Shown piece after piece: positions 7,732 to 47,792 of a DNA stretch of 64,000 bases. How positions within the stretch are numbered: position 1 is the stretch's first letter; each line of letters starts with the position of its first letter. The stretch spans positions 1 to 64,000 of the IMG/VR virus record IMGVR_UViG_3300031962_000002, one strand, 5' to 3'. Position numbers and translations under genes: made by a program. The stretch is from a virus. Below the pieces are notes generated by a model that saw nothing but the letters and a program-made list of their open reading frames with translations, was not told the origin of the DNA and made no database searches.

Positions 7732-8052
7732 ATGACACCAGAAGAATTCATTCTCCAAGGAGCACCCAGAAATATCTTTAGCAAAGATTCAGGAATAAAT
7801 AAGATTCTAGTTGAACGTACAGAACAGATCGAGAAACATCATCGGACTACCACTGATGATGTACTCTATAACAGTAAAGGACAATTGAGATATGCGGCAA
7901 TCGAATTGATCAAAGTGGATCCATCCAAAATACCTCCAATTGGGTGGAATGGTGAAATATGGTATAAAATGATATCAAAGCCATTGAAAGAACGCCTCAT
8001 CATTGCAGGAGCTCTCACGGCGGCGGAAATTGATAGACTCCAATCTATTTAA
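7732..8052 (+). CDS. Conserved-type phage hypothetical protein
   Basis: ERxxQIEK...AGALxAAEIDRL pattern. Confidence 0.75.
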   Translation: MTPEEFILQGAPRNIFSKDSGINKILVERTEQIEKHHRTTTDDVLYNSKGQLRYAAIELIKVDPSKIPPIGWNGEIWYKMISKPLKERLIIAGALTAAEIDRLQSI

Positions 8053-29176: not shown

Positions 29177-31609
29177 CTATTTACCGCTAGGTTTTGGTTT
29201 TGCGTTCGCTGCCGCCAACTGAAACCTACCTACGGTTTCGGCTTTCATCAATTCGGTAAACCGTCTCTCTTCCTCTGCCGAAAGTTCTTTGCCTCTTTCC
29301 AACTGGATTTTAACATGCAACAAGAAAGCCTCATTGCTGGCTTTTTTATCTTCCAGCGCCATTTTTCCTTCTATTTCTTGGTTCATTAACCCAGATTTAG
29401 CCTGCATCTCCATTTGCAGCCCTTGTTGGGCGGCTTGTGCCGTGGCCTGTGCCGAAGCGATGTTCTTTTGCTGTTCGCCTTGATATTGGGCCTGCATTTC
29501 TTGCTGTTTGAGGTCTTGTTTCTGCTTCCGATACATTTTAAGCAGTCGGATGGACCTCCAGATATTTGGTTCCATTTGGATTTCAAAGGCTTCCTCTTCA
29601 TAGAGAGTACCATTGGTGATGCCAACTTGGCAGTATTGATTGATCCACTGCCGCATTTCTTGAGTAGGTTGCTTCATCAAATAACACCCCAGTTCGTGAT
29701 AGGTCAAATCCGAAAGAAGTGCTGGAATGGCCATGGCCTGAATCCCGAGCGCTTCCGTGTATTGTGGTGCCAGCCCTGTAGCTGCCATCCCAGTAATATG
29801 CATCACAGTCCGCTGGTGAGTCCCCAGATTGATCGAATCGAATGCGAAGTACAATTGCCTCAAGGCATCGTCAGTCGCTCCTGAAGCCATTGTAGCCACC
29901 GCTTTGCCCATTTCTGAATTGGGAGTACTTGCGTCTGTCAACTCATTTAAGCCGATCTGATCGCGTAGAAGGTTGATATTTTGGATAAGGAAGCTAAAAT
30001 GCTTCTCCATGGCATTTGATATGCCTCCGGCTAAAGGCTGGATTGGTAGATTATTCCGGATGTTTCCCTGGGCATCGCGCGTCCGGATCAATTGGATACC
30101 TGTCTCAAAATAGATTTGAAGGGCTTCCTTCGGGGTGATGGCTTTCCCTCCGGCTCCCTGAAGGCTGATATCCTGAAGGGCTGTGAAGTCGATCGCAAAC
30201 CCAGCGGGCACCGATTTGGCGGCATGGTGCTGGAATTGTAGCCACTGGATTTGGATGTTATCAAGGGTAGGAATAATGCTGTCGATAATGCAGCGCTTCA
30301 TCTTATAGATAGTGTACGGCCCTACTGTTTTGCCAAGATCCGACTCGTTTTTGAGGATATCCTTGCTTTTCCCGTATGAGCAAACAAACTCCGTCCCTCT
30401 CACCCAGAGACATTGATACTGATTATCTAGCGTGTACCGTACTACTTTGCTGTTATTGACCTTATTGAATTTTTCTTCTGTTAGGCCAGGATTTTTCTTT
30501 TGAAGGTCATTCCACCAGGAATATTCCTTTTGACTCACACTGACATTTCCAAACTGATTTTGACCGACTTGATAAGTTTCCCAGTCAGGAGAAAACCACA
30601 CAAAGTCGCCAATCGTTATTTTGGTATTGTCCCATGGATAGCACAAGTTTTCGCTGAAATAAGTCTCGGTGTTAACTGAATCAAAATTTGTTCTCATGGC
30701 CTGTTCTGCCATCTTTTTGTATTCATCTTCGGTGAACTGATCGCCCGCTATCTCTTTGAATTGACCGATGGTCAAATCCCAGTATTCACCGATGTACTTT
30801 ACATCGTCACACAGGCTTTTGCTGGTAGAACTCATCACCATCCTCTCCGGCACACACCGTCTGCGAACAATTTTGTTCCTCACACGGTAAACCTTTGTGA
30901 CTCCTACACCTATCTCAATCAAATCACGGGCGGCTTCTGCAAGTATGTCGGTGTAGTTGTCATTCTCGTTCATTATTTTCAACAAGTCCTGAATGACCAT
31001 GCAATAGTCCTCTTTGTAGAACATATCCATGAACACGTTGATCTCGGCCATGTTCTGTGGCGTGCCCATCACCTCTTCCTGCGCTGGTTGCTCGAACTGA
31101 ATTCCTGTTTTCTGTGTAACGCCTTGCAAAAAACTGGAATTCATAACGTACTCCTGCAACTCCATTTTCTTTTTTCTTCTGGCGTCCTGCGCCCGGACAT
31201 CCACGGCCCGGATACCAATGTCATTGTTTTGCTTCATCAATTTGCCAAGCAAAACATTCACATATTTTGACGCGATGTCCAATATCTCCCAGTTGAGAGC
31301 TCGGTAACTATGTGCCGTTGGATCACGGCGCGCTCGTTTATCATTTATCCCTAAAATGGGTTTGTACTTGTCAATGGGCTGGTTCCCTCTCGCATACGCC
31401 CTTCGTTCGGTGTACTTATTTGCATTGATGCCATTTCGAGTGGTGTTAAATCCAGGAAACAGACCGTTATCGGTTCCATTTATTCCTACTCCGTTGATGG
31501 CTTTTGCCCATTTAATAGCATATTCCTTTGATGCCTTCTGCTCTGGACTTAAAAAGTCAGAGGGGAATCTGGGATTGCGGACGTCCATTTCCATTTCTGC
31601 CATAATCAA
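29177..31609 (-). CDS. Portal protein
   Basis: 810 aa immediately after terL, with a podovirus-like Gln-rich coiled-coil C-terminus. Confidence 0.85.
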   Translation of the reverse strand: MIMAEMEMDVRNPRFPSDFLSPEQKASKEYAIKWAKAINGVGINGTDNGLFPGFNTTRNGINANKYTERRAYARGNQPIDKYKPILGINDKRARRDPTAHSYRALNWEILDIASKYVNVLLGKLMKQNNDIGIRAVDVRAQDARRKKKMELQEYVMNSSFLQGVTQKTGIQFEQPAQEEVMGTPQNMAEINVFMDMFYKEDYCMVIQDLLKIMNENDNYTDILAEAARDLIEIGVGVTKVYRVRNKIVRRRCVPERMVMSSTSKSLCDDVKYIGEYWDLTIGQFKEIAGDQFTEDEYKKMAEQAMRTNFDSVNTETYFSENLCYPWDNTKITIGDFVWFSPDWETYQVGQNQFGNVSVSQKEYSWWNDLQKKNPGLTEEKFNKVNNSKVVRYTLDNQYQCLWVRGTEFVCSYGKSKDILKNESDLGKTVGPYTIYKMKRCIIDSIIPTLDNIQIQWLQFQHHAAKSVPAGFAIDFTALQDISLQGAGGKAITPKEALQIYFETGIQLIRTRDAQGNIRNNLPIQPLAGGISNAMEKHFSFLIQNINLLRDQIGLNELTDASTPNSEMGKAVATMASGATDDALRQLYFAFDSINLGTHQRTVMHITGMAATGLAPQYTEALGIQAMAIPALLSDLTYHELGCYLMKQPTQEMRQWINQYCQVGITNGTLYEEEAFEIQMEPNIWRSIRLLKMYRKQKQDLKQQEMQAQYQGEQQKNIASAQATAQAAQQGLQMEMQAKSGLMNQEIEGKMALEDKKASNEAFLLHVKIQLERGKELSAEEERRFTELMKAETVGRFQLAAANAKPKPSGK

Positions 31610-31615
31610 AGATAT

Positions 31616-34600
31616 TTAATTATCAGTCGTATCTAAAACAAATTGGGAATTAACGCCTGAGTTATCATAAGTCTCGAACCAATCTTCAATCTTATGTTTT
31701 GGCGCATCATCCTCTCTTTCAACTTTCTTTTCAGCGTGCGCCAATGTGAATCCAGAACTTACGGTAGCATCTGATTTTGTTGGGTTTGTTGGGTCAAAAC
31801 CAAGCCAGTCTTCAATCGTATTATCGAAAGGCATTGACCCAATTCTTGTGTTGATAAAGGCAATTATGCGCCTGGTATAGTAGTCAATAACTTCTGGCGT
31901 TGTGGACCATCCTGCATCGTCAGAACTGGTTTGTATCTCCATGTCTGACCCAACAAAGTCTCTCGGATAAGCCAGAAATTTTTCCAGTCCATTGGTTTCA
32001 AAGTAATCGTTCAGGGAAGGAACGTTTCTTTCAGGCATCAATTTACATCCAAGAAAAATGCAAGCCATTGCTGTATCCTCAAATGACGTTTCTGGGTCTT
32101 CTGGACGGTTGATGTATTCAAATATGAAGTTAGATGACTCCCAGTCTTTCTTTTCTTTTCCGTAGTCAACGGACATATCGAATAATCTATATCCATGAAT
32201 GGCTGCTTTTGATGCCCGTGGGTCTTTCGTCTTTGAATACTTTATCGGGTCACTCCCTATCCTGAAAAGGTGATCGTTTTTCGGAAATAGCATCTGTCTG
32301 GAAAATCCTTTGTTGTCGTATCCCCATGCTTTTCCAACATTGTTCAGAATTTTTACATTCTCTGGGTCTTTGATCTTGCTAAATTCATCGGGGAACCAAG
32401 CCCAATTAAATCGGCCTGCGTGATCATCCCGTTGCCACCATACTGGCCCAAATTTCTCTTTCACCCAATATAAATTCCCTTTTACATACGGCAATCGGGG
32501 CATGTTTCTTATTTGCTCTAACCGGTTGGTCAGCAACATGACATTGAAAATAGACTTGCTCTGATCTTTGATGAAAGCTTCTGCCTCATTACGAGGGCTT
32601 TTGCGCATACGGCCTGACAGCTTTTTAAGGTCATGTTTCACCGCGTCAAAGTCATTCTGAATTTTGATGTTAGCGATATTACGGTTCACATTCCCGTACT
32701 TGTCACAAGGAATGCCGTGGTTGACCCCTTTTAAGTCAATATATGGTACTAGCGAAGTGTCAGTATCTAATGCGGAAATAAGGTGAAAGTGAATCTTGGA
32801 TGTGGTGAATCCGTTGCCATCCAAAATTTTCATGTTGCTGTCCTTTCTTAATTTCAAACACTCATCACCGCCTTCATTCATCTCTTCAACCGTAGATGTT
32901 TTTCGTAACAATCCTATCTTGCGATTATTCCGGAACACACATTTCAAATTCACCTCATGGCGAACGTAAACATCGGCAACTGTTTTTGGATTGGTGTTGT
33001 GAGTGACTTGACAATCTCCTAATAAATGTTGCTTATCTCCATCTAAAACGAACCCAACATATTGCGAGAACCCATTTTTTTGAACAGAGAACCCACAGCG
33101 TAATGGATTTCTCCTATTCACATGATGTTTGTTTATTTTTGGAAATTGTTTTCTCTTAACTTTTGTTGGAATGTCTGATAAATCTCCAAACAAGAATAAC
33201 CTATACACTTTGCAGGAATATATTGTACCATCTTTTCTTTTCATGGTCGCATTTTTCTCAGCAATGGAGCAATAAAATCCAAGTTCAGTTGATAATCTAT
33301 GAATGCCCTTGGCTAAAACTTCAAGTTTTTGCGTTATCTCACAATTCTGTCTATTTCCTGAAATTGTTGCATGACCATCTGAGTCGATTAGGCCGGCTAA
33401 TAATTTTAAGCGACTTTCTCTATCATTTATTAAATAGTCCTTCGGGATGTGTTTGTTCTTTTTTAGATTATACAATTTCAGAATTCCGTGGAATGTCTTA
33501 ATCCTAACACTTTGTGTTCTATTGACAGGTTCAACAAGTCTGGAAATTCCTTTATAGGTTGACAACAACCAATTAAGCACTTCCGGATCGGTATTGGTTA
33601 TGTGCATTGCGCATTTATTCCCATCTCCGAGCCAAAGACCTAATAAATAAGGATCTATCCATGTTTTTTTGAATTCATATTCAACTGGAACTTTAAATAA
33701 TAAAAGATGTTTCTTAATTGTTTTATTCAATTTCAAGTAAGAATCAATTGTTATTGTGACGGTATCGTCTTTCTTAAATTTTTTGCCATTTAAATTTAGT
33801 GTTCTATGATTGCCCCATTTCAAAACTAATTTATGACCTGAACTACATGACCATTCATCCCATCCTTTTTTAGGTATTATTTTAAACGACTGGTCAAATC
33901 CTAATTTAATTTGTTGAATGTTTCTTATGGTTGAATCTGGCCCCATTAACTTATCAGAGATAGCAATCTCATCGGCCCTTTTTATGTGACCATTGTGTAA
34001 TAAAACTTTTGTTTCAGGTGCTAAACATTTCCCTATCTCATCCTCAAATAGGTCTGAAAGTGTGTCTGAGTCAAGTACCTTTTCACCTGGGCCCGCAGCA
34101 AAAATTGTACTTAGCAATTCATAGTCTGCACCATATTCTACATTGATACTTTCTTTTCCACCTACTGATCTACGTCTGAATACGAGTTCGCTTTGAGTAT
34201 TTGTACCGTGAGTGAATTCTGGCTTAAAGAATTTTGGAAGAGCATTGAATAATGGTACCATCTTGGCCTGAATCAATACTCCTTTTGCATCGTCTTCAAG
34301 GTGCTTGCTTTGAAGTGCTGCTCGATGATTGTGGTACATCGTTGCGCGATTTGTGATACAGGCCAACTCTTCGTTGGTTTTTCCTGTCGCCCTGGGGCCG
34401 ATGATCATATACCCCATGCTGTGAGGATTTTCTTCACACCATTGCCGTATCCTGAAATTGTCAAGAGAGAAATGATAATAGAATGGGTAACCATTATTTT
34501 CCTTGTGATCAAACTTGCACCATTGCAGATAGAAATAATGATGGTTAGTCAAATAAATACATTCGCCATTGATCATTACGTGAACCCCATACATTCTACG

Positions 34601-34879
34601 ATACCATTCACGCCTACGATAGCGTTCACACATCGCATCCACATAGACGGTTTTCTTTTTCCCCCTCAAAACAAGATCCCGATCTTGTCCTTGCTTAAAC
34701 TCTTCTTCCAGTGATCTTTCGATATACCATTTCGGAACAGATTCACGTTTCCAGTATTGTTCTTCGATCGGTAATCCGTAATTGATAATTTGTGAAGTGT
34801 CCGTAGGTACGGGTGGAATCCAGCATTGAAAGCCCTCGCCGACTGTAATTTTTGTTCCGTTTTTTATAGGATAGAACAT
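31616..34879 (-). CDS. terL: Terminase large subunit containing an intein
   Basis: Walker A GPRATGKT, Walker B LFEDEIGK, nuclease motifs IGSDP and KSDATVS. Confidence 0.9.
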   Translation of the reverse strand: MFYPIKNGTKITVGEGFQCWIPPVPTDTSQIINYGLPIEEQYWKRESVPKWYIERSLEEEFKQGQDRDLVLRGKKKTVYVDAMCERYRRREWYRRMYGVHVMINGECIYLTNHHYFYLQWCKFDHKENNGYPFYYHFSLDNFRIRQWCEENPHSMGYMIIGPRATGKTNEELACITNRATMYHNHRAALQSKHLEDDAKGVLIQAKMVPLFNALPKFFKPEFTHGTNTQSELVFRRRSVGGKESINVEYGADYELLSTIFAAGPGEKVLDSDTLSDLFEDEIGKCLAPETKVLLHNGHIKRADEIAISDKLMGPDSTIRNIQQIKLGFDQSFKIIPKKGWDEWSCSSGHKLVLKWGNHRTLNLNGKKFKKDDTVTITIDSYLKLNKTIKKHLLLFKVPVEYEFKKTWIDPYLLGLWLGDGNKCAMHITNTDPEVLNWLLSTYKGISRLVEPVNRTQSVRIKTFHGILKLYNLKKNKHIPKDYLINDRESRLKLLAGLIDSDGHATISGNRQNCEITQKLEVLAKGIHRLSTELGFYCSIAEKNATMKRKDGTIYSCKVYRLFLFGDLSDIPTKVKRKQFPKINKHHVNRRNPLRCGFSVQKNGFSQYVGFVLDGDKQHLLGDCQVTHNTNPKTVADVYVRHEVNLKCVFRNNRKIGLLRKTSTVEEMNEGGDECLKLRKDSNMKILDGNGFTTSKIHFHLISALDTDTSLVPYIDLKGVNHGIPCDKYGNVNRNIANIKIQNDFDAVKHDLKKLSGRMRKSPRNEAEAFIKDQSKSIFNVMLLTNRLEQIRNMPRLPYVKGNLYWVKEKFGPVWWQRDDHAGRFNWAWFPDEFSKIKDPENVKILNNVGKAWGYDNKGFSRQMLFPKNDHLFRIGSDPIKYSKTKDPRASKAAIHGYRLFDMSVDYGKEKKDWESSNFIFEYINRPEDPETSFEDTAMACIFLGCKLMPERNVPSLNDYFETNGLEKFLAYPRDFVGSDMEIQTSSDDAGWSTTPEVIDYYTRRIIAFINTRIGSMPFDNTIEDWLGFDPTNPTKSDATVSSGFTLAHAEKKVEREDDAPKHKIEDWFETYDNSGVNSQFVLDTTDN
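32996..34027 (-). mobile_element. Intein with a LAGLIDADG homing endonuclease (344 aa)
   Basis: Starts CLAPETKV and ends VTHN|T; contains PYLLGLWLGDG and LLAGLIDSDG. Confidence 0.92.
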
Positions 34880-40800: not shown

Positions 40801-43800
40801 CAGGTCATAACCTTGCATCCCTGGGAAGGTCAGGTGATCGCCATTGAATTTCTTAATGACAATGCCATTGAAATACTCATTGTATAGTTTTGACAGTTCG
40901 TTACCTGTCTTTTCATCGGCCTCAATAAGCCCGGCAAATTCGTTCTGGAGTCTTTCAGCCTTATCACGAACATCCTGCGTGAGTTTTGGAAGTGGTGTTT
41001 TGGTACCATCTGAATGAGTGACATAAAAGTCGGGCACATTTTTAGTGATAGCGGCTTTCACGACCACATCAACGCCACGGCGATGACCGTCTGGGTCGAA
41101 GGCTTCATAGTCGCCTCCCAGAACGCGGGAATTCACTTCGTAATCATCCGTGGCTTTATTGTACCGAACCGTCACTCGTCCTTCTCCAAATACTGAATCA
41201 AGGAATTGTTGTGTATATTTTAACGGAATCCACGATGCCCCCAACTGGAAAGTGATTTGTTCTTTGGGAATAGGCATCGGAATGATCTTTTTGAGCGCCT
41301 CAACATTGCGTTCATATTTCTGATCAACCTTAACCCATTGTTCGGCCTGCTTTAGCTTCTCAATGACGTTGCCTGATAAATACTCGTTCTTTTCAACGAT
41401 CTCGTCAGGCGTCTCAAAAATCTCATCTTTTATTCTTTTGATTGTTGCCTCTTCTGATTTCTCGCCGAGTACCTTCTGAATGAAAGGCATGTTGAGTTTT
41501 CCATAGTTGTTGATGGAAAACCCTATCGCTTCCTGTGGAACTTCGGTCTTTGTAAATTCATTCAGTTCTCTCTTGATAGGTTTTTCAACAACATCTGAAA
41601 ATGTTCCATCCGATTTTTCAAGGGCTGACACCGCATAAAAATCGGGATCAGAAACCAGTATGCGATTGATCGCTTTGTTGCCTTTTGCAAGTGAGTTGAG
41701 GTTTGATGGTTTGATTATCCTGATAAAATTCTTTAGCGCAATCCGAAGGCGTGAACGCTCTTCTTTTGTGTCCTCATTGAGTTTGTCTTTTGCCAAAACA
41801 TCAAAGTAGATTTTCTTAGTATCAACAAATGCCTTCAAAATAGGCATGTCCTTCTCGGCGGGCATCACGCCTTTGCCAATCTCTTCGATTGAGTATTTGC
41901 CTGTATCCCGGTCGAAGTCGCGCACGAAGTAATATTTCCCTTCATTTTCAACAATGCCACCAGATACCATCCGGCCCAGCGGTGTGATTTGAAGAGTCTG
42001 AAGGGTGTCCTTTTCTTGCGCCTGACGTTCGAGTATGGGTGCCTTTTTGGCCATCTCGGCAAGTTTTTCGCCTACCTTGGTTGGATCAAATTCACCTACC
42101 AAAGTGTATCCTCTTTCAGCATTGTAAAGTCCACCGGCCTTGAATTCTGTGCCAAAGATGTTTTCCGGGTTCTTTTTGAAATACTCATTGTACTGGATAT
42201 CCTGATTGGGCAAAGCGGGGTTGTTGTGCTTTACATTTTGGGTTACAATGTTCGAAATCTGGTCGACGCCGGGAACTGATGGTGTAATCTTCTTCCTCAA
42301 AAGGATGATATCAGTCACCACCTGGGTACCGGCATCGGCATTGAATGCTGAAGAAGAAAGCCTAACGGCGCCTACAAAATCGGTTTCCTTGTTGATTAGG
42401 TCCCTGGTGCCTTGGTTTCCCGGCGTATCGAGGATATTTGATGTGGTCAAAATCGCCACATATCCACCCGGCCGCACCGAATCAATGGCTTTGGCAAAGA
42501 AGTAGGTATGCAGTTTATCTTGGCTCTGTTTCCACAGACCTCCGCGCTTGTCCAATTGAGGATCGTACACATGAGCTGACCCAAAAGGAATATTGGAAAC
42601 GAACAAATCATAGTAATTTGACGGAATTGAGGCGCTTTGCAGCGGGCTATTAATAATTGATGCCTTCGGATATAGGTATTTGCTGATCAAAGAGCTTACG
42701 ACATCCATGTCGACGCCTTTAACCCGGCTATTGCCGGACATCGCCGCTGGCATCCCGCCTATAAACCGACCAGTTCCTACTGAACCTTCAAGGATTTTGC
42801 CCCCTTCAAATCCTCCAGCGCCAAGCCCTTCATAGATTGCCCGAATAACAGGCAAGGAGGTGTAATAGGCATTGCGTGTTGAACTTTTGGCTGTCTCCAA
42901 TGGCTTTGTGCCAGTCTTCTCCCCAATGTCCTCCAAGAGGCTTTTGAGCTTTTGGGCATCATCAAAGAATTCGAGGTTTGATTTCGTCCAGTCTTTGCCG
43001 AGCTTGTTGTCAGAAAGCAGAATCTCGCCCAGCGGGCCTAACCCATTGTATTTGGCGAGTGCTTCCTTTTGTTCATCTGTGGCAAAACTGTCCGGATTGT
43101 CCAAAAGATTATTAATCACCTCCAACGCCGCGATGTTGTCAGTGTATGCCTGCCGCTTGGAGAATGTCTTGTTCTTAGTCCTTTCCCAGTTCTCTGGGTA
43201 GACAAAGTTGTGCTGGATCTCGGAGTCCTTTAATTCAGGCCGTAGGCGTCCCTCATTGCCTCCTGAAGGCTCTCCTGCGGGCTCATTCCCGTTTTCTCGT
43301 ACATCTCCTGGTTGTGATTCACCAGGCTGACTAACGTTTCCATTTGCTTCTTCGCCTCCAGTTCCTTTTCCTTGTTCAGTTCCTCCCTTCTCTTCTCCGG
43401 CATTGCGTTCAGCATTGACGCTACTGGTCCGTGAACCTCCTTCACCAACCACTGTTCCAGTTTTGTTAACATTTTCTTTAGGTGTTAATTTTTCAAGTTC
43501 TCTTTCGTTGACTACCTTTTCGATAGTCTCTTTCGGAATATCTTGGACGTTTTCAAATTTCTCACCAGTCCGCTTCTCCACTGAATTCAACAAGTGAGAA
43601 GGATTTTCAAATCCTTTCTTTTTGGCTATCTCGTCCGCATGAGATTTAGCCTCTTCCTTAGTCAGAAATTCCCCTTCAGGCGTGGCGACATGATAGCCGC
43701 TGCCGGGAATTATGTGCACTGGTTGAGACGAAACAATGTTGCCTTTCAGAACCGCACGGACTCCGTTCTTGTCCTCCCCTACTTTATCCCCTTCCAGGTT

Positions 43801-46410
43801 GGTCCCGAGAACTTTAAAGCCCTTGCCAAAAGACTCTTCTTGTTTGGCTTCTTCGGGTTTAGGATTAGATATTTCACTCCCTTGAGTTGACGTTTGAGTA
43901 TTTTCATTGGTTATTTTATCTTTAAAAAATTGCGCTATATTTTTGTCTGAAATTTCATAGCCTGAATCAGTTTCAGTTAGATAATTAGTTAACTCACTGC
44001 CAGCCTTAAGTCTTATACTAACCGCTCTTTTGTCTTGTATAGGTTTTCCTTCTTTGTCATAAAACTGGACTATTCTGCTGCCATCATCTGTTTTTATTTC
44101 TTGACGAATACCATTTTCAAAATCAGTCTTTGTGGCTGTAGCATTTCCTATTTTTAATTCCTGTTTATTAATTTCTTCTCCAAGATCAGGAACATCAATT
44201 GTGCTTGTTGCTATCCCGTGTTTTTCTGATTCTTTCTTCCACTTTATTTTTTCCTCGGTATTGTCTCCGAGTGGTGCTTGTTGCTTTTCTTCTTCAGTCC
44301 GATTTTCTTGGGTAGTTTCATTCCCTTGGACGCTTGGTTCCACTCGTCCACGTTCACTCCCTGGTTCTCCAACTGCTTCTTGTGCATGTTGAAGTACGCT
44401 GCTTGTGCTTGGCTCTTGTATGGCATTTTGTTCCCCCTCCTTGGTTTTATTTTTTAGTTTGTAAACAAATGCTTTTTCTCCGTTTTCTAAAATGATGGTT
44501 GAACGTTCGTATTTCTCTTCCCAATTATCAAGTTTTTTTAACTGTTCTGGCGTAACCTCCAAAACTTCCCCTCTTAAATTCTTCCCTTCATCATGTTTAA
44601 TGTCAGGGAAAGATTTAATGTCAAATTTTTCATCGTTTGGAGCAATTGCCATTTCTGTCTTCACATGTTCACCTATTGCTTCTTTTCTTGTCTTTGGATC
44701 TTTTAAAGTGCCGTAAACAAATACTTTTTGTTTCCCCGTTTCTGGATTAACTGGAACTACTTCTGATGATGGCTTAGTCTCGAGAATTTTATCTTGCCGT
44801 ACTTTTTCCTCCCGATTGCTGCCGCTACTGCTCCCGGGTTGTTCACTCCCGGTTCGTGGCTCAATTTGTTCTTCAGTTTCTGAAAGCGGCCTCCCCCGCC
44901 CAGTTTCATTGACTTGTGGATTGTTTGTGATTTCATCTTTTTGTGATTTTGATTCGTTTGTTATTTTCTCTTGGTTGTTTTTAAAATTGCCAACGATATG
45001 ACCGCCTCCAATAATACCAATGGAACCATAAAATCCCTGTAATCCTTCCTCTCTCGATCTATTCCAATCAATGTCTTTTTCCCAATCAATGTCATCAACT
45101 TTCTTTCCACTTGCTAAAAGTGCCCCTATTTGTGAATTGGTGCCTTGCATGAACTCTGTTGCATATTCAGTTAATGGTTCTGCTAAAGCCTTAACGCCTT
45201 TTTTCCACATTGCCTCTGGGGCATGTTTCAATAACTCTTCTGTGGCTTTCTTTTTGATTATATTCTTAACACCTACACTAAATGCTTTAGTAGTTGTGAA
45301 TATTGATGATCCTAGATCAAGAACTCCATTTATTAACCCTACAACGTGAGCAACTTCTTTGGCTGGCTTGTCAAGATCCTTTTCAATAACTTCTTTTTCT
45401 GTTATTCCATAATTCTTAGCTATCGCTGAAACAGCCTCATCATAGGCACCTCCTTTTTCCATAAGATAACTTGATGCCCCGAGCGTAGCTACTGAGGTAG
45501 GAATATAACCTAACCCATTACCGATGGCTCCCCCAATATAGGATGCTATTCCAGATGAACCTTGCTTGGTGGCTTCTTCCCAATCTTTTGGTATTGCCTT
45601 CAAACCAGAATAATCACCCAGAAGTTTACTGGATTCCTCCTGAATTTTTTTTGCCTCTTCTAAGTGTGATATTTTTTTATTTATTGCCGCCGCTGTAAAT
45701 GATGGCCCTACTTTAATAATCTTACCCTCTTTTGTAATGACATCCCCACCTTTGCGCCATCCAGGATATTCCTCATCTGCTATTTTTTCAGCATATTTTC
45801 TTCGCGTCTCATCACTGGCAAATTCATTTAACACTGCATATTTTTCAGGATGAGTCCGGATAAGTTCATCTATGAAATCCGTTTTCTGATTGATAGCCTC
45901 ATTTTGTTGAATGTTTGCAGGAACATCATGCTTAAGTACCGAAATAAACTTTCTTCCTAAATCAAATAGTCCTCTGAATAGATTTTCTGTCGCACCTCCT
46001 CCATATTCCTTCAATGCTATATCATGAATGTTCTCTTCTGGAGTAGGCGTTAAAGTTACTTCTGGTGTTGGTGGTTGAGGTTTTGTTGGATCAATCTGCC
46101 CGCTTAATAATTGTTCTTCTGGCGAAGGACTTGGTGGCGTGATTGCCAACTCTGAACCAGTTGATAAAGGCTTTGTAACATCCAATTGACCAGGTAACGA
46201 AAAACTGAAAGTATCGTCTTTTTTTTTTACTTTGGATTCAAAGTCTGAATATTCTCCTAATTCAAATTCTTTACCAACTCCATTGTAAAATGCCTGTCTT
46301 TTAGTTGGATCTTGCAGTTTTTTAGTGAACTCATCTAGGGAACCAATGTCATATTTTTTTGACACGGCTTCATGCAACACCTTTATTTTATCGTCAGTAG
46401 GATCAATCAT
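34879..46410 (-). CDS. Giant DarB-like polyvalent (probably ejected) protein: GGCT-like domain, adenine methylase, SF2/SNF2-like helicase, helical C-terminus
   Basis: FVYGTL (GGCT); ILEGSVGTG and NIPF (N6-MTase); HQVGAGKS, VDES, SGTP and QRNGRGIRRGN (helicase). Located in the ejection module. Confidence 0.88.
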   Translation of the reverse strand: MIDPTDDKIKVLHEAVSKKYDIGSLDEFTKKLQDPTKRQAFYNGVGKEFELGEYSDFESKVKKKDDTFSFSLPGQLDVTKPLSTGSELAITPPSPSPEEQLLSGQIDPTKPQPPTPEVTLTPTPEENIHDIALKEYGGGATENLFRGLFDLGRKFISVLKHDVPANIQQNEAINQKTDFIDELIRTHPEKYAVLNEFASDETRRKYAEKIADEEYPGWRKGGDVITKEGKIIKVGPSFTAAAINKKISHLEEAKKIQEESSKLLGDYSGLKAIPKDWEEATKQGSSGIASYIGGAIGNGLGYIPTSVATLGASSYLMEKGGAYDEAVSAIAKNYGITEKEVIEKDLDKPAKEVAHVVGLINGVLDLGSSIFTTTKAFSVGVKNIIKKKATEELLKHAPEAMWKKGVKALAEPLTEYATEFMQGTNSQIGALLASGKKVDDIDWEKDIDWNRSREEGLQGFYGSIGIIGGGHIVGNFKNNQEKITNESKSQKDEITNNPQVNETGRGRPLSETEEQIEPRTGSEQPGSSSGSNREEKVRQDKILETKPSSEVVPVNPETGKQKVFVYGTLKDPKTRKEAIGEHVKTEMAIAPNDEKFDIKSFPDIKHDEGKNLRGEVLEVTPEQLKKLDNWEEKYERSTIILENGEKAFVYKLKNKTKEGEQNAIQEPSTSSVLQHAQEAVGEPGSERGRVEPSVQGNETTQENRTEEEKQQAPLGDNTEEKIKWKKESEKHGIATSTIDVPDLGEEINKQELKIGNATATKTDFENGIRQEIKTDDGSRIVQFYDKEGKPIQDKRAVSIRLKAGSELTNYLTETDSGYEISDKNIAQFFKDKITNENTQTSTQGSEISNPKPEEAKQEESFGKGFKVLGTNLEGDKVGEDKNGVRAVLKGNIVSSQPVHIIPGSGYHVATPEGEFLTKEEAKSHADEIAKKKGFENPSHLLNSVEKRTGEKFENVQDIPKETIEKVVNERELEKLTPKENVNKTGTVVGEGGSRTSSVNAERNAGEEKGGTEQGKGTGGEEANGNVSQPGESQPGDVRENGNEPAGEPSGGNEGRLRPELKDSEIQHNFVYPENWERTKNKTFSKRQAYTDNIAALEVINNLLDNPDSFATDEQKEALAKYNGLGPLGEILLSDNKLGKDWTKSNLEFFDDAQKLKSLLEDIGEKTGTKPLETAKSSTRNAYYTSLPVIRAIYEGLGAGGFEGGKILEGSVGTGRFIGGMPAAMSGNSRVKGVDMDVVSSLISKYLYPKASIINSPLQSASIPSNYYDLFVSNIPFGSAHVYDPQLDKRGGLWKQSQDKLHTYFFAKAIDSVRPGGYVAILTTSNILDTPGNQGTRDLINKETDFVGAVRLSSSAFNADAGTQVVTDIILLRKKITPSVPGVDQISNIVTQNVKHNNPALPNQDIQYNEYFKKNPENIFGTEFKAGGLYNAERGYTLVGEFDPTKVGEKLAEMAKKAPILERQAQEKDTLQTLQITPLGRMVSGGIVENEGKYYFVRDFDRDTGKYSIEEIGKGVMPAEKDMPILKAFVDTKKIYFDVLAKDKLNEDTKEERSRLRIALKNFIRIIKPSNLNSLAKGNKAINRILVSDPDFYAVSALEKSDGTFSDVVEKPIKRELNEFTKTEVPQEAIGFSINNYGKLNMPFIQKVLGEKSEEATIKRIKDEIFETPDEIVEKNEYLSGNVIEKLKQAEQWVKVDQKYERNVEALKKIIPMPIPKEQITFQLGASWIPLKYTQQFLDSVFGEGRVTVRYNKATDDYEVNSRVLGGDYEAFDPDGHRRGVDVVVKAAITKNVPDFYVTHSDGTKTPLPKLTQDVRDKAERLQNEFAGLIEADEKTGNELSKLYNEYFNGIVIKKFNGDHLTFPGMQGYDLNPHQKDAIMMIVQKMGGMVDHQVGAGKSLVMSVGAIKMKEIGLVNKPLITTMKSVVPGMMDQIKAQYPEKKILAPTDKDFSAANRQRLFAQIANNDWDLVIITHENLGTIPLPAEFESQYIEGEIEELRSAMSEMNADKSDKWAVKQAKALEERVANLKTRLEKLQDKGVGASRTDFGTMGVDMLFVDESQQMKNLNFVTKLRNVSGMGTAKGSKRASNLKMVTRYLQNMHGGDKGIVFASGTPISNSLVEVYNIFQYLRPSLLKKLQMVSLDQFLKNFALITSQMEKNVAGVIKNKTRLTKFVNVPELASLYSEISDVRGEHNLKLEKPEIKGGKPEIILIPQSETVRMITKAIYDASKSASIAPLKSIGINPQGDAEKALGLVLTTLGTKASIDPRLVFPHQKADGGKLFKVADEVKKIYDEEAEKKGTQLVFADMGTPKNKNAKLGDRVHDQVIEMYGEEVLNEIPNTDTIWKQTEQSAIKQKLIDILEVDPSEADFIIEEANNVNSFNVYDALKNLLVSKGIPEKEIAFIHDAPTKKLKEELFDKVNKGQVRVLLGSTQKMGTGVNVQSKIAAMHHVDVGWRPSDLEQRNGRGIRRGNSYKEVAIKYYGTQETIDSYRFDLLSRKQSGIDSFRAGAKGLREMDFEDGESMTMSEFAAAISGDTRILDLEKLKSKAEKLRNRVESTKRANIMRSRRIDEAKKFVDYTREERRIVNDLADRIVKNIKLEEVEEESKDEKGKVKKVTTVVAKFKGEVNGQEYDTANPKQRQEFYQALSERANDAMHSTYRRQIGTIGGIDVYARQNEGYKDARVDLGDDTVTNKNISPVAIIKRTQAINPLTLRIAVQATIRDIRIDISQSEKEYKDALSNLKSAEGVKEVAAKEEDIKELAETEEKRNKLSAELKAESEKQSEEKLPEEPKNSLEDIIAENSKKNAEENFEGFSGAMTTGLPIKPIGKVKKAPSNNALLAIIAQSGKTREELERQLNEEVKIGDQEVDERIDKAAAPAPENMEKTWGEAITGVKNWATQHFKFLDAKTWPREANILREFETLYPWAKGNANQYVKTMVEGMTPQQYKIFSMRIILADMQESIKKGLNMVGPDGKLPFGFNDADQVDRALTKYDIFMKGDPRIQRAFDMREEFMAEFKRQLIESGLLDENDIESYYHRRVLEYHAENEHKSILFGKDIADKKRDFQKRRKGTRGLDYSTNFIETEFKVVSEGMYEMEKQRILKDLVAPFEKQLNAISAEFKKHFDAQLASIEKQFGEDSKEVKQYIDGKRALKRNYLFDNLPEGFTFYRVSEDNRLFWGKTVSQKTIDRAIDQAEDNDNAGLSDALAIVDELISGLKSGLMVGPKRKQYMIPTQLAEQLEELAKNETVSAPTGLATKITSAWKQLMILSPTRMLRYNLNNFGSDLDRLIQVEPKIAKYAKEATGELWRYLKYGETTPQLLEAMRGDVINSGFQISELADISKEKWAEALQSDSPSIENILGKEGMKKLAIKIKDAPGNLWDKYMKAVSPYVQFRENILRYAAYKLAVEKTAKGEAFYWASPADQIRKITDVRQKNAKLARDVFGDYMNLSQGAHQMRRVLLPFYSWFEVNMKTHLNLLKNASSPQAQRDIIKSAVSRGIPSVAFKMARAYVMMGLFTAAIQAWNKFAFGLYGGDEDDEKRLRATKIKGLQLIVGVRDGHIITVPIQGAFYDFIDFFGLWSIGDDLERIFTGGQPVKETVKTAKGIGTNMLNKGVQLVNPLPKALFELGSGQSYYPDITNPTPINDKWEYLFKSMTLGDEYNYALSDKPKRESYLSRKFHNSLLREFDTEQLSYYAAKKIINNYEGGDVGGSKGETGNPTRADQKDAEYKFMLALRYGKYDDADKWLGEFLQKGGNPANIKQKLRSSNPFAGVKKVPIKGEPVSEWIDLYHILNDENYHPQTHFGRQITSEDKFTLKEAMNYYERIIKNAKEYKAHPVLTPVE
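43230..43472 (-). CDS. Nested +1-frame helical protein D (loosely TnpV-like)
   Basis: 80-aa helical-looking sequence that overlies a Gly/Glu/Asn low-complexity linker of the main frame, just before the methylase. Confidence 0.55.
   Translation of the reverse strand: MLTKLEQWLVKEVHGPVASMLNAMPEKRREELNKEKELEAKKQMETLVSLVNHNQEMYEKTGMSPQESLQEAMRDAYGLN
44244..44426 (-). CDS. Nested +1-frame small basic protein B (MPYKS-type)
   Basis: MPYKSQAQAAYFNMHKKQLENQGVNVDEWNQASKGMKLPKK; preceded by AGGAGGGGG-aacaaa-ATG. Confidence 0.7.
   Translation of the reverse strand: MPYKSQAQAAYFNMHKKQLENQGVNVDEWNQASKGMKLPKKIGLKKKSNKHHSETIPRKK
44757..44936 (-). CDS. Nested +1-frame small basic protein A (59 aa, not in ORF track)
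   Basis: MKSQTIHKSMKLGGGGRFQKLKNKLSHEPGVNNPGAVAAAIGRKKYGKIKFSRLSHHQK. It resembles a free-standing small phage protein type (GRF..L...PGA.AA.IGRKKYG), recognised from memory. Confidence 0.65.
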   Translation of the reverse strand: MKSQTIHKSMKLGGGGRFQKLKNKLSHEPGVNNPGAVAAAIGRKKYGKIKFSRLSHHQK

Positions 46411-47792
46411 TAAAATCCGGGTATTTTAATTTTTCCTGTTTTAGGCTTAGTCTTTTCTTCTGCCTTTCTTTTTTCATTTATATAGGTAGGATATTCTTCT
46501 CCAATGGCTGTCTTTTTATTGATCTCATCCATTCTTTGAGATAGAGCAACTTTGGCTTGACGTTTTTCTTCTTCTGTATTTATCGGAAGATAAACTGATG
46601 CTTTACTCTTCGCCCCACCGAAAATGTTGAATGTCTGATTACCCTCTGCATCGGTTTGTGGCATCCCACTCACATAATCAAGTTTGATGAATTTTCCTTT
46701 TGTTCCCTTATCATTCTTGCTAGCGTATTCTGCTCGCACGTCGCTGGCTAACTTGCCGAAATACGAAAGGACATCTTTCCCTGAATCTCCAGAAACAACA
46801 CGATTTAAAAGTTCATCTCTTCCTTCCAAGTCTGCTTTCTGATTTCTGTATCCGTAGCCTCCAAAATGATAATACCTACGGTCAGCCTCATTTTGTTTGA
46901 ATCCTAATTGAGGTCTATTTTTAACTTCCTTCGGATCGTAACCTTCAAGCAATGCAGTCAGGTACTTCTTATTCTGTTCAATTGTGCCATTTGGTACATC
47001 TTTAGCTACGAGTTTAGACAACATAGGATCTTGCATTGCCTGGATGTAAACATCGTCGGTCATGTTGATCTTTGGCATTCCAGTTCTCGGGTCCATAATA
47101 ATTCTACCTTTGTCATCCTGCGCGATTCCAAGTTTTGTTTTTGTGTCTTGAATGTTGTATTGCTGGCCTAGTGGATTAAACATATCAGTGTAGTACTGAT
47201 TCACTTTTTCCGGTAATCCTTTCATAAAATTAAGAGCAACACCTTGTTTGTCGTAATTATTTGGATGGTCAACAATGCTTTGTAATTGATTCATCCCTGC
47301 TCGAATGTCATTATCTGGTTTCAGTTTCCCAGTATTGTCATATAGAACATCGCGGAGTACGCTTCTTGATTCTGGTTTATAAATCCCAGATTTGATATTG
47401 TCTTCGATTATTTTGCTTGCGGCATCATAGTCGTTTTTCCAATTGTCTGTTTCGGCGATGTAGGAATTCACTTCTCCTTGACCTCTTCGGATATCACGTT
47501 CAGCCATCGATATTTTTCGTGGATCATTTTGAGCGGCATCAATAACGGAATACGATTTTTCTCTGTGATTATTGACGTAATCGGATATTCTTTGCTTCAA
47601 AGGATCGAACTTTGCTTCGGGCTTGTACTTATCCATGTAATCATGGAGTGCGTCGCGATCTTTCTTGGCTTGCTCTGCCTTTAACGCTTCGTTTTTTTGA
47701 CGTTGCGCTTGTTGACCGATGTACACTTGAAGAGGATTTATACTCCCTCCAAGTATGGTTGCGTTGCCTAGTTCTTCACTTGCAGAGGCCAT
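46410..47792 (-). CDS. Putative DNA ejection/internal virion protein
   Basis: Position upstream of the giant gene; helical. Confidence 0.6.
   Translation of the reverse strand: MASASEELGNATILGGSINPLQVYIGQQAQRQKNEALKAEQAKKDRDALHDYMDKYKPEAKFDPLKQRISDYVNNHREKSYSVIDAAQNDPRKISMAERDIRRGQGEVNSYIAETDNWKNDYDAASKIIEDNIKSGIYKPESRSVLRDVLYDNTGKLKPDNDIRAGMNQLQSIVDHPNNYDKQGVALNFMKGLPEKVNQYYTDMFNPLGQQYNIQDTKTKLGIAQDDKGRIIMDPRTGMPKINMTDDVYIQAMQDPMLSKLVAKDVPNGTIEQNKKYLTALLEGYDPKEVKNRPQLGFKQNEADRRYYHFGGYGYRNQKADLEGRDELLNRVVSGDSGKDVLSYFGKLASDVRAEYASKNDKGTKGKFIKLDYVSGMPQTDAEGNQTFNIFGGAKSKASVYLPINTEEEKRQAKVALSQRMDEINKKTAIGEEYPTYINEKRKAEEKTKPKTGKIKIPGF

Follow-up and report, generated by a model that had tools for sequence, protein, structure and literature searches.

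Two widespread small-protein families are probably encoded out of frame in the linkers of a giant polyvalent-type phage gene

In phage lambda, the small gene Rz1 lies wholly within Rz, on the same strand, in the +1 frame and with its own start codon. To our knowledge, Rz1 is not a widespread free-standing family that has been captured by unrelated hosts, and the two genes, which are about equally old, work together as partners. In Bacillus subtilis, the small regulatory gene comS is translated out of frame inside srfAB, a very large multidomain gene; comS is lineage-specific and lies inside a folded module of this non-ribosomal peptide synthetase. Overlaps between genes arise most simply by loss of a stop codon or by extension of a neighbouring open reading frame (ORF), and the younger of the two frames is disordered (Delaye et al., 2008, PMC2268670; Pavesi, 2021, PMC8227390). 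The polyvalent proteins of phages and conjugative elements, which include the DarB-like methylase-helicase proteins of P1, have been described by Iyer et al. (2017, PMC5512222), in whose paper the words linker, overlap and frameshift are absent. A limited literature search found no description of conserved small genes nested in the linkers of polyvalent proteins. Here we analyse a window of 64,000 nucleotides (positions 1 to 64,000 of the IMG/VR virus record IMGVR_UViG_3300031962_000002), in which a giant polyvalent-type ORF, P0001, contains four small ORFs, ORF1 to ORF4, in another reading frame. The window is part of a record of 75,540 bp that is estimated to be 94% complete.

We consider it probable that two of these ORFs, ORF1 and ORF2, are genuine nested genes which are older than the giant frame running over them, that both coding layers have been kept, and that the small proteins are probably made. 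On comparative grounds we firmly regard ORF2 as a real nested gene; ORF1 appears to be one as well, at a lower level of confidence. A first-pass annotation of the window had described an array of four small genes overprinted in the linkers of P0001. The coordinates, strand, frame and ATG starts that it gave were correct: all four are minus-strand ATG ORFs in the +1 frame relative to P0001, with (46410 - start) mod 3 = 1 in 4/4. Its description of the overlying main frame as low-complexity linker also agrees with our results. Over each of the four ORFs, 80–88% of the P0001 residues belong to the hydrophilic set G/S/P/E/Q/T/K/N/D/R, compared to 62% in the whole protein, and the isoelectric point (pI) of these stretches is 4.4–4.7.

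The first-pass annotation had noted that two of the ORFs resemble free-standing small phage proteins, and homologues of this kind were indeed found for ORF1 and ORF2. In a collection of 5.8 billion proteins, ORF2 has 199 homologues of 33–105 amino acids (best E-value 6.7e-18) and ORF1 has 179 (best E-value 4.5e-16). ORF2 is full-length. It aligns from residue 1 and retains all invariant positions in alignments of 15 and 121 sequences (M1, P2, K4, S5, A7, Q8, F12, N13, G23, V24, V26, E28, N30, S33, K34, G35 and P39). It also has the layout of its family, with a Met-Pro-(Tyr/Phe)-Lys-Ser start, a core that extends to about residue 40 and a variable basic tail after it, and its terminal branch is at the family median. 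ORF1 is likewise full-length, and retains the core GGGGRF followed by AVAAAIGRKKYG; the invariant residues F18, A38, A39, G42, R43 and K45 are all present. The features of its family ('GGGGRF...AAAIGRKKYG'), a glycine-rich motif plus RF and then the PGAVAAAIGRKKYG helix, are found in ORF1; most members have a longer basic tail at the C-terminus than ORF1 does. When the family profiles were searched against the phage's own genome, they matched with E-values of 5e-34 (ORF2) and 6e-34 (ORF1), and each family proved to be single-copy in the 75.5-kb phage, represented by the nested copy only.

Most members of the two families are free-standing genes. IMG/VR contains 258 relatives of ORF2, and among the best 80 of 258, which were analysed, most ORF2-type copies are free-standing genes of about 55–70 codons. 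Yet 11/81 viral ORF2-type hits are nested inside same-strand open frames of 427–4,407 amino acids, always with the small gene in the +1 frame. Contigs of metagenome-assembled genomes gave a similar picture, with 3/15 ORF2-type loci likewise nested in +1 (in bins assigned to Cyclobacteriaceae, Acidobacteria and Oscillospiraceae). Relatives of ORF1 are mostly free-standing small genes that adjoin portal or large-terminase genes. Because both families are mostly free-standing, the small-gene frame is taken to be older than the giant frame. This differs from de novo overprinting, since it is the nested frame of ORF1 and ORF2 that has the wide distribution.

The giant ORFs that host ORF2-type genes are varied. 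Their domains include LPD1, LPD23, ddrB-ParB, sigma-70, RelA/SpoT, 2'-5' RNA ligase/Acb1-like, His phosphatase, GGACT and Zeta toxin; LPD1 and LPD23 occur in the giant ORFs of loci L002 and L073, both of which carry nested ORF2-type genes. Most pairs of host ORFs are alike only in the 36–60-residue linker that overlies the nested gene, and the domains flanking this linker vary by locus (GGACT, RelA/SpoT, a short N-terminal module, or unknown). It had been suggested in the first-pass annotation that the nested products may be inhibitors or chaperones of the adjacent domains. This idea does not fit ORF2, where regulation of an adjacent domain is disfavoured because the neighbours differ among loci.

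Comparison of nested and free-standing copies indicates that both reading frames are maintained. In the 55 unique free-standing ORF2-type copies, the frame used by the giant gene has 1–8 stops in the 38-codon core (mean 4.1) and is open in 0 copies, whereas it is open in 12/12 nested copies. For ORF1-type genes, the relevant frame is open in only 17% of the free-standing copies. When the small genes were recoded with the codon usage of the phage, the giant frame stayed open in 0.12% of the trials for ORF2 and in 0.3% for ORF1. The stop counts and the recoding trials imply that openness of the giant frame is maintained, and that translation of the giant protein runs on across the small genes. 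Conservation of the small frame is the same in both settings, with a mean pairwise protein identity of 0.725 for nested versus 0.729 for free-standing copies. Identity of the giant-frame peptide among nested ORF2-type copies is lower, at 0.51. Nucleotide differences among the nested copies amount to 0.24, 0.15 and 0.36 at the three codon positions of the ORF2 frame, so that the wobble position of the giant frame is the least variable of the three. If the linker peptide were the target of selection, the reverse pattern would be expected. Since protein conservation of nested and free-standing copies is equal and the giant-frame wobble is the least variable position, both frames are under selection. 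ORF2 shows the two features of a nested pair, purifying selection on the embedded frame and maintenance of the host frame. For ORF1 this comparison is thin, because only the copies of the window and of locus L057 are nested.

Several points weigh against the interpretation that ORF1 and ORF2 are genuine nested genes whose products are made. Fold and profile searches of ORF1 and ORF2 yield no function. The terminal branch of ORF1 is long (0.41 versus a median of 0.12, the 98th percentile), which could reflect relaxed constraint, and ORF1-type nesting occurs in only one other locus (L057). The motif ahead of ORF2 that resembles a Shine-Dalgarno (SD) sequence lies in an SD-poor genome, and is possibly a by-product of glycine and glutamate codons. 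Judged by shuffle statistics, the ORF lengths alone are unremarkable. Furthermore, a tree of the 42-residue ORF2 core has only 1 well-supported branch of 59, and because of this poor support one ancient nesting spread by domain shuffling is indistinguishable from repeated engulfment. The long terminal branch and the shortened tail are the reasons why we regard ORF1 as still functional with less confidence than ORF2.

An alternative explanation might be that the small genes are relics, silent today and taken up during a fusion of adjacent genes, and that they look intact owing to recent capture or to constraint from the giant frame. The long branch of the window's ORF1 would fit this explanation, as would the possibility that the SD motif of ORF2 goes unused in an SD-poor genome. 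However, the 12 nested ORF2 copies differ by about 27% at the protein level, and yet the ATG, the invariant residues and an uninterrupted frame are present in every one of them. They are as conserved as the free-standing genes, with variation concentrated at the third codon position of the small frame, and a disordered linker would not preserve the amino acids of another frame. Moreover, the genome is nearly complete, and ORF1 and ORF2 are the sole representatives of their families in it. We therefore think it unlikely that the nested genes are silent remnants.

Alternatively, selection might act on the giant-frame peptide (AVQEPST..VLQ.PQEG.GE.G..RGRVEPS.QG), for instance as a processing or docking site, with the similarity in the +1 frame as a by-product. 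This motif recurs in at least 12 otherwise unrelated giant proteins. Yet conservation is lower in the peptide than in the +1 protein (0.51 versus 0.73), its wobble position is the least variable one, and its invariant columns are only 5/39. In addition, most family members are free-standing and have 1–8 stops in that frame, which makes this explanation very improbable. A search with the frame-0 peptide that overlies ORF1 found no relatives.

A third explanation invokes recoding, whereby ribosomes on the giant gene would shift +1 into the small ORFs and produce truncated isoforms that end in the small-protein module. The ORF1-type module is indeed known elsewhere as the in-frame C-terminal part of larger proteins. 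In contrast, the ORF2 module is always N-terminal and starts at the conserved Met-Pro, and no conserved slippery site was seen upstream. Several nested ORF2-type copies have +1 stops one to a few codons upstream of the ATG. The ATG itself is retained in 12/12 nested ORF2-type copies, and the base ahead of it varies freely (the giant frame encodes N, D, Y or H there). Retention of the ATG, the near upstream +1 stops and the always-N-terminal position of the module favour independent initiation over frameshifting, and recoding seems just as improbable as selection on the giant-frame peptide.

The first-pass annotation had credited one of the small ORFs with an SD motif, and a GGAGG is present 9 nt upstream of the ATG of ORF2. 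Use of this motif is uncertain, because the genome is SD-poor (SD in 3/46 genes). Such sparse SD motifs resemble translation of the Bacteroidota type. Across loci, SD-like motifs precede 5/12 nested versus 6/55 free-standing ORF2-type copies (Fisher P=0.02). This excess before nested copies may be a signal for internal initiation, or it may be a by-product of the Gly/Glu codons of the linkers.

The weakest explanation, that all four ORFs are chance products of a low +1 stop density in G/A-rich linkers, agrees with the shuffle statistics and with the lack of free-standing homologues of ORF3 and, as far as databases go, ORF4, but it has next to no credibility for the set, since it is refuted for ORF1 and ORF2 by matches with E-values of 1e-16 to 1e-18 to hundreds of independent small proteins, and it is the best reading only for ORF3. 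As an array, the four ORFs are not beyond chance expectation. In 500 synonymous shuffles of P0001, the mean number of +1 ATG-ORFs of at least 59 amino acids was 4.2 versus 6 observed (P=0.22), and the longest +1 ORF had a shuffled mean of 98 amino acids versus 80 observed. The shuffles put the chance of an open +1 frame at 0.17, 0.46, 0.51 and 0.10 for ORF1, ORF2, ORF3 and ORF4, respectively. Every other same-strand nested ORF of at least 35 amino acids in P0001 is in the +1 frame too. This is due to the stop-rich +2 frame, which has 0.085 stops per codon compared to 0.053 in the +1 frame. The pattern of the array is within chance, and therefore the case for ORF1 and ORF2 rests on the homology and comparative evidence.

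ORF3 is most likely a chance ORF, and its length does not exceed what chance would give. It has 0 matches among 1.84 billion representatives, no match beyond noise in Pfam, PHROGs or NCBIfam, and no homologous region in G001, which contains the only related giant gene found. A further +1 ORF lies just upstream of ORF1 on the minus strand (window 44961-45110; 49 amino acids from a GTG, 44 from an ATG) and overlies the folded N-terminal domain. Family scans of this ORF gave no matches, and it is taken as chance.

The evidence on ORF4 is suggestive only, because it comes from one pair of genes and from low-complexity sequence. Database searches found no free-standing homologue. The giant gene of G001 is a 5,179-codon ORF that is 53% identical to P0001 over amino acids 964-2772. 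At the place of ORF4 it has a +1 ORF of 79-88 codons, 40-42% identical, whose ATG is displaced by one codon and whose stop coincides with that of ORF4 in the alignment. Identity at this place is 0.39-0.41 in the +1 frame versus 0.29-0.30 in frame 0, the largest +1-over-frame-0 excess in 173 sliding windows (1,800 aligned codons), and +1 identity elsewhere averages 0.25. Differences by codon position of the ORF4 frame (0.46, 0.35 and 0.49) are not significant alone; in the rest of the gene, the differences by codon position of the giant frame are 0.35, 0.25 and 0.66. Scans of viral and metagenome sequences for more relatives of ORF4 returned only the known G001 contig, and a comparison of the ORF4 profile with the ORF1 and ORF2 families gave a probability below 1%. 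Possibly, ORF4 is a younger, lineage-restricted nested gene, and it would then fit the feature of de novo overprinting that the embedded frame is younger and narrower. The first ~1,900 residues of the 5,179-codon ORF (locus L165, G001:C1:9000-28999, minus) are unrelated to the first 963 of the window's giant protein. This ORF is without an ORF1- or ORF2-type nested gene, but has several other +1 ORFs of 51-88 amino acids.

As support for an expressed array, the first-pass annotation had proposed free-standing homologues and a +1 frame that is more conserved than frame 0. The former were found for ORF1 and ORF2 but not for ORF3 and ORF4, while the latter applies to ORF2 and, in the single pair just described, to ORF4. 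Its view that the giant gene grew by engulfing neighbouring genes, whose alternative frame became spacers, holds up for ORF1 and ORF2, which belong to older free-standing families. It does not extend to an array of four, given that ORF3 is without homologue and ORF4 has one nested counterpart.

The features of the window are listed in Table 1. P0001 consists of an N-terminal domain, a linker, the GGACT domain, another linker, unknown domains, a G/E-rich linker, an Eco57I-like methylase, a DEAD/SNF2/Helicase_C region and a long C-terminal part. The linker over ORF1 joins the N-terminal domain to the GGACT domain, which sits between ORF1 and ORF2, and the methylase and SNF2-type helicase region comes after ORF4. 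The methylase assignment is a weak match. P0001 has the hallmark of a polyvalent protein, in that several unrelated conflict-type domains (GGACT, the weak methylase and DEAD/SNF2/Helicase_C) occur in one phage ORF; a Pfam scan found no match to an LPD domain in P0001 at E<=1. P0001 belongs to a long block of same-strand genes. It overlaps its neighbours at both ends: the stop of an upstream 460-amino-acid gene at its start, and at its stop the beginning of the gene for TerL, the large terminase subunit. TerL is unusually long, with 1,087 amino acids; its matches to PHROG terminases begin only at about residue 280-650, and the N-terminal part ahead of them is an unexplained extension.

Table 1. 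Coordinates of P0001, the four nested ORFs and associated features in the window.
Feature	Position	Strand and frame	Length	Remarks
P0001	34879..46410	minus	3,843 codons (amino acids)	Giant polyvalent-type ORF
ORF1	44757-44936	minus, +1	59 amino acids	pI 11.3; unannotated 'KLGGGGRF...AVAAAIGRKKYG' family; alternative ATG at 44909
Giant-frame reading of ORF1 DNA	44758..44937	minus		Amino acids 492-551 of P0001; acidic disordered-type linker, pI 4.7, 88% G/S/P/E/Q/T/K/N/D/R
GGACT domain (gamma-glutamyl cyclotransferase-like)	44431..44724	minus		Amino acids 563-660 of P0001; Pfam PF06094, E 1.3e-12
AAGGAGG SD-like motif	44436..44442	minus		GGAGG ends 9 nt before the ORF2 ATG; part of 'KEGEQ' in the giant frame
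ORF2	44244-44426	minus, +1	60 amino acids	pI 10.2; 'MPYKSxAQAAYFN...GVNVDEWN..SKG' small-protein family, unannotated
ORF3	43779-43907	minus, +1	42 amino acids
ORF4	43230-43472	minus, +1	80 amino acids	Over the G/E-rich linker ahead of the methylase
Terminase large subunit gene	31616..34879	minus		Directly downstream of P0001; PHROGs phrog_6681 E 6e-58, phrog_6547 E 1e-65
Portal gene	29177-31609			After the TerL gene

The sequence of this region is well supported. Positions 43000-46500 are identical, with no indels or differences, in an independent Logan assembly of a soil DNA metagenome run, which is possibly the source of the record. For this uncultured soil phage, it is the only listed run that contains the stretch, with no RNA run among those listed. 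Because the two assemblies are identical here, the long P0001 frame is not an assembler artefact. The same soil run contains a 151-nt contig of depth 3 that matches 35 nt of the ORF2 core (window 44337-44371) with 2 differences and has unlike flanks. This contig is probably an ORF2-type gene of another phage in the same sample.

Annotation resources say little about either family. Scans of all four peptides against Pfam, PHROGs and NCBIfam gave nothing beyond noise, no model in these libraries matches the ORF2 family, and a tblastn search of ORF1 and ORF2 against 50,697 GenBank phage records gave no match. The ESM Atlas places ORF2 among clusters of viral hypothetical proteins and offers DUF3008, a family of short viral proteins, as a weak lead only (score 0.88; it is the nearest Pfam-bearing cluster, of which 37% of the members carry the family). 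We rejected an assignment to DUF3008 (PF11450), as hmmscan of ORF2 and 14 relatives gave no match even at E<=10. AlphaFold models predict small three-helix proteins with basic tails, with a predicted local distance difference test score (pLDDT) of 73 for ORF2 and 78 for ORF1. Foldseek searches of both models against the PDB returned no match with E<=0.001, and in a wide VIA-align search the best Z-scores, 4.3 for ORF1 and 2.6 for ORF2, reflect common helical arrangements only.

More can be gathered from the position of the two modules in proteins and genomes. The ORF2 module always starts its protein, whether it stands by itself or opens a longer one (107-786 amino acids), and this strict N-terminal placement suggests that a free N-terminus matters. 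Among the longer proteins that have the ORF2-type module at their extreme N-terminus are those at L006:2204-3883 (560 amino acids), L031:8001-10358 (786), L014:7995-8708 (238) and L055:7980-8693 (238). They begin with Met-Pro, except that L031 has Val-Pro with a GTG start. The ORF1-type module, in turn, is found as a C-terminal or internal part of larger proteins, in L150-L156 (e.g. L153:7686-8141), L116:6657-8207 and L101:7101-8942. One example is an acidic protein of 152 amino acids with a 'prohead' PHROG match, located directly behind a T7-type portal gene. A role of the ORF1-type module in the capsid or as a kind of scaffold is thereby hinted at.

The genomic neighbourhoods link the two families with each other and with giant genes. 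ORF2-type and ORF1-type genes lie side by side in L057, both nested in +1 in a 1,666-codon ORF, and are free-standing neighbours in L102 and L007. Free-standing ORF2-type genes elsewhere are located just upstream of TerS, TerL or portal genes, while others come 1-13 nt after the end of a giant ORF, whose size ranges from 1,000 to more than 2,600 codons. In L005, L008, L009, L012, L026, L044, L046 and L062, for instance, the small gene is at about position 8001 and a giant ORF ends 1-13 nt before it. These upstream giant ORFs, many of which exceed 2,200-2,600 codons, gave no Pfam match and one uninformative PHROG. Over their C-terminal ~450 amino acids they share homology with the C-terminal ends of those giant ORFs in L020, L048 and L057 that have nested copies.

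The giant genes of the window, L015 and L057 have a common N-terminal domain (window amino acids ~250-440), followed by a nested small gene. After this domain, the order is ORF1-type, GGACT and ORF2-type in the window, ORF2-type, GGACT and Zeta toxin in L015, and ORF2-type plus ORF1-type in L057. The differing content of these three genes suggests rearrangement around the linkers.

For ORF1 and ORF2 as genuine nested genes, we propose the following scenario. The giant frame would have been extended or fused through pre-existing, neighbouring small genes. Reading one base earlier would turn a basic protein rich in K/A/Q/G into an acidic, disordered spacer rich in E/S/P/T/G/Q between folded domains. 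From then on, selection would preserve the protein sequence encoded by the small frame and, in the giant frame, at least its openness. ORF1 and ORF2 would be translated by independent internal initiation at their own ATGs, presumably from a late mRNA shared with terminase and portal. Judging by synteny, their products probably have a part in packaging and head assembly, or work together with the giant protein.

More speculatively, and with considerably less confidence, polyvalent giant genes might routinely grow by being extended, in the -1 register, across conserved small genes that belong to the packaging module. The DNA of these genes would thereby supply disordered linkers at once, and internal starts would still yield the small proteins. 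The products of nested ORF1, ORF2 and perhaps ORF4 could then be partners of the giant protein, for example in capsid loading, and the nested gene could serve as a recombination point for domain shuffling. We see this as a tentative idea.

Genuine nesting of ORF1 and ORF2 would have several implications. As the first-pass annotation had anticipated, gene callers miss the nested layer, at least where ORF1 and ORF2 are concerned. Because an ORF that lies within a longer one is discarded by gene callers, standard annotation of this phage overlooks the only members that it has of two widespread families, and the same blind spot affects about one in six or seven loci that carry an ORF2-type gene. 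The ORF2 family also offers a natural, replicated test of dual coding, in which genes for the same protein contain 1-8 stops in the other frame if they are free-standing, but none if they are nested. The arrangement further points to an uncomplicated way for giant multidomain counter-defence proteins to gain linkers and new domains. Finally, it ties two function-unassigned families to the terminase and portal neighbourhood and to giant virion-associated genes, which narrows the search for their role.

Compared to the described systems, the nested ORFs of the window resemble Rz1 of lambda in that they too are embedded in a larger phage gene in the +1 frame, on the same strand and with their own start. 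They differ from Rz/Rz1 in that an older, widely distributed small gene lies in the linkers of varied multidomain giant genes. The likeness to comS and srfAB is that the small genes of the window also lie out of frame in a very large multidomain gene. However, the embedded genes here come from large families, and the host frame is a disordered spacer. P0001 itself resembles the polyvalent proteins: it is a giant multidomain protein with a methylase, an SNF2-type helicase and small enzymatic domains, and its gene adjoins those for head and packaging proteins. LPD1 and LPD23 are present at related loci, and the scan of P0001 detected no LPD domain at E<=1. As in overlaps that arose by ORF extension, the younger frame is the disordered one. 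Unlike in those cases, the younger frame is here no new gene but the spacer of an existing giant gene, and nesting of one and the same small gene recurs across many unrelated hosts. As far as these comparisons indicate, the arrangement differs from known nested genes in three respects: the embedded gene is older and widespread, the host frame is a linker, and the nesting recurs in unrelated polyvalent genes.

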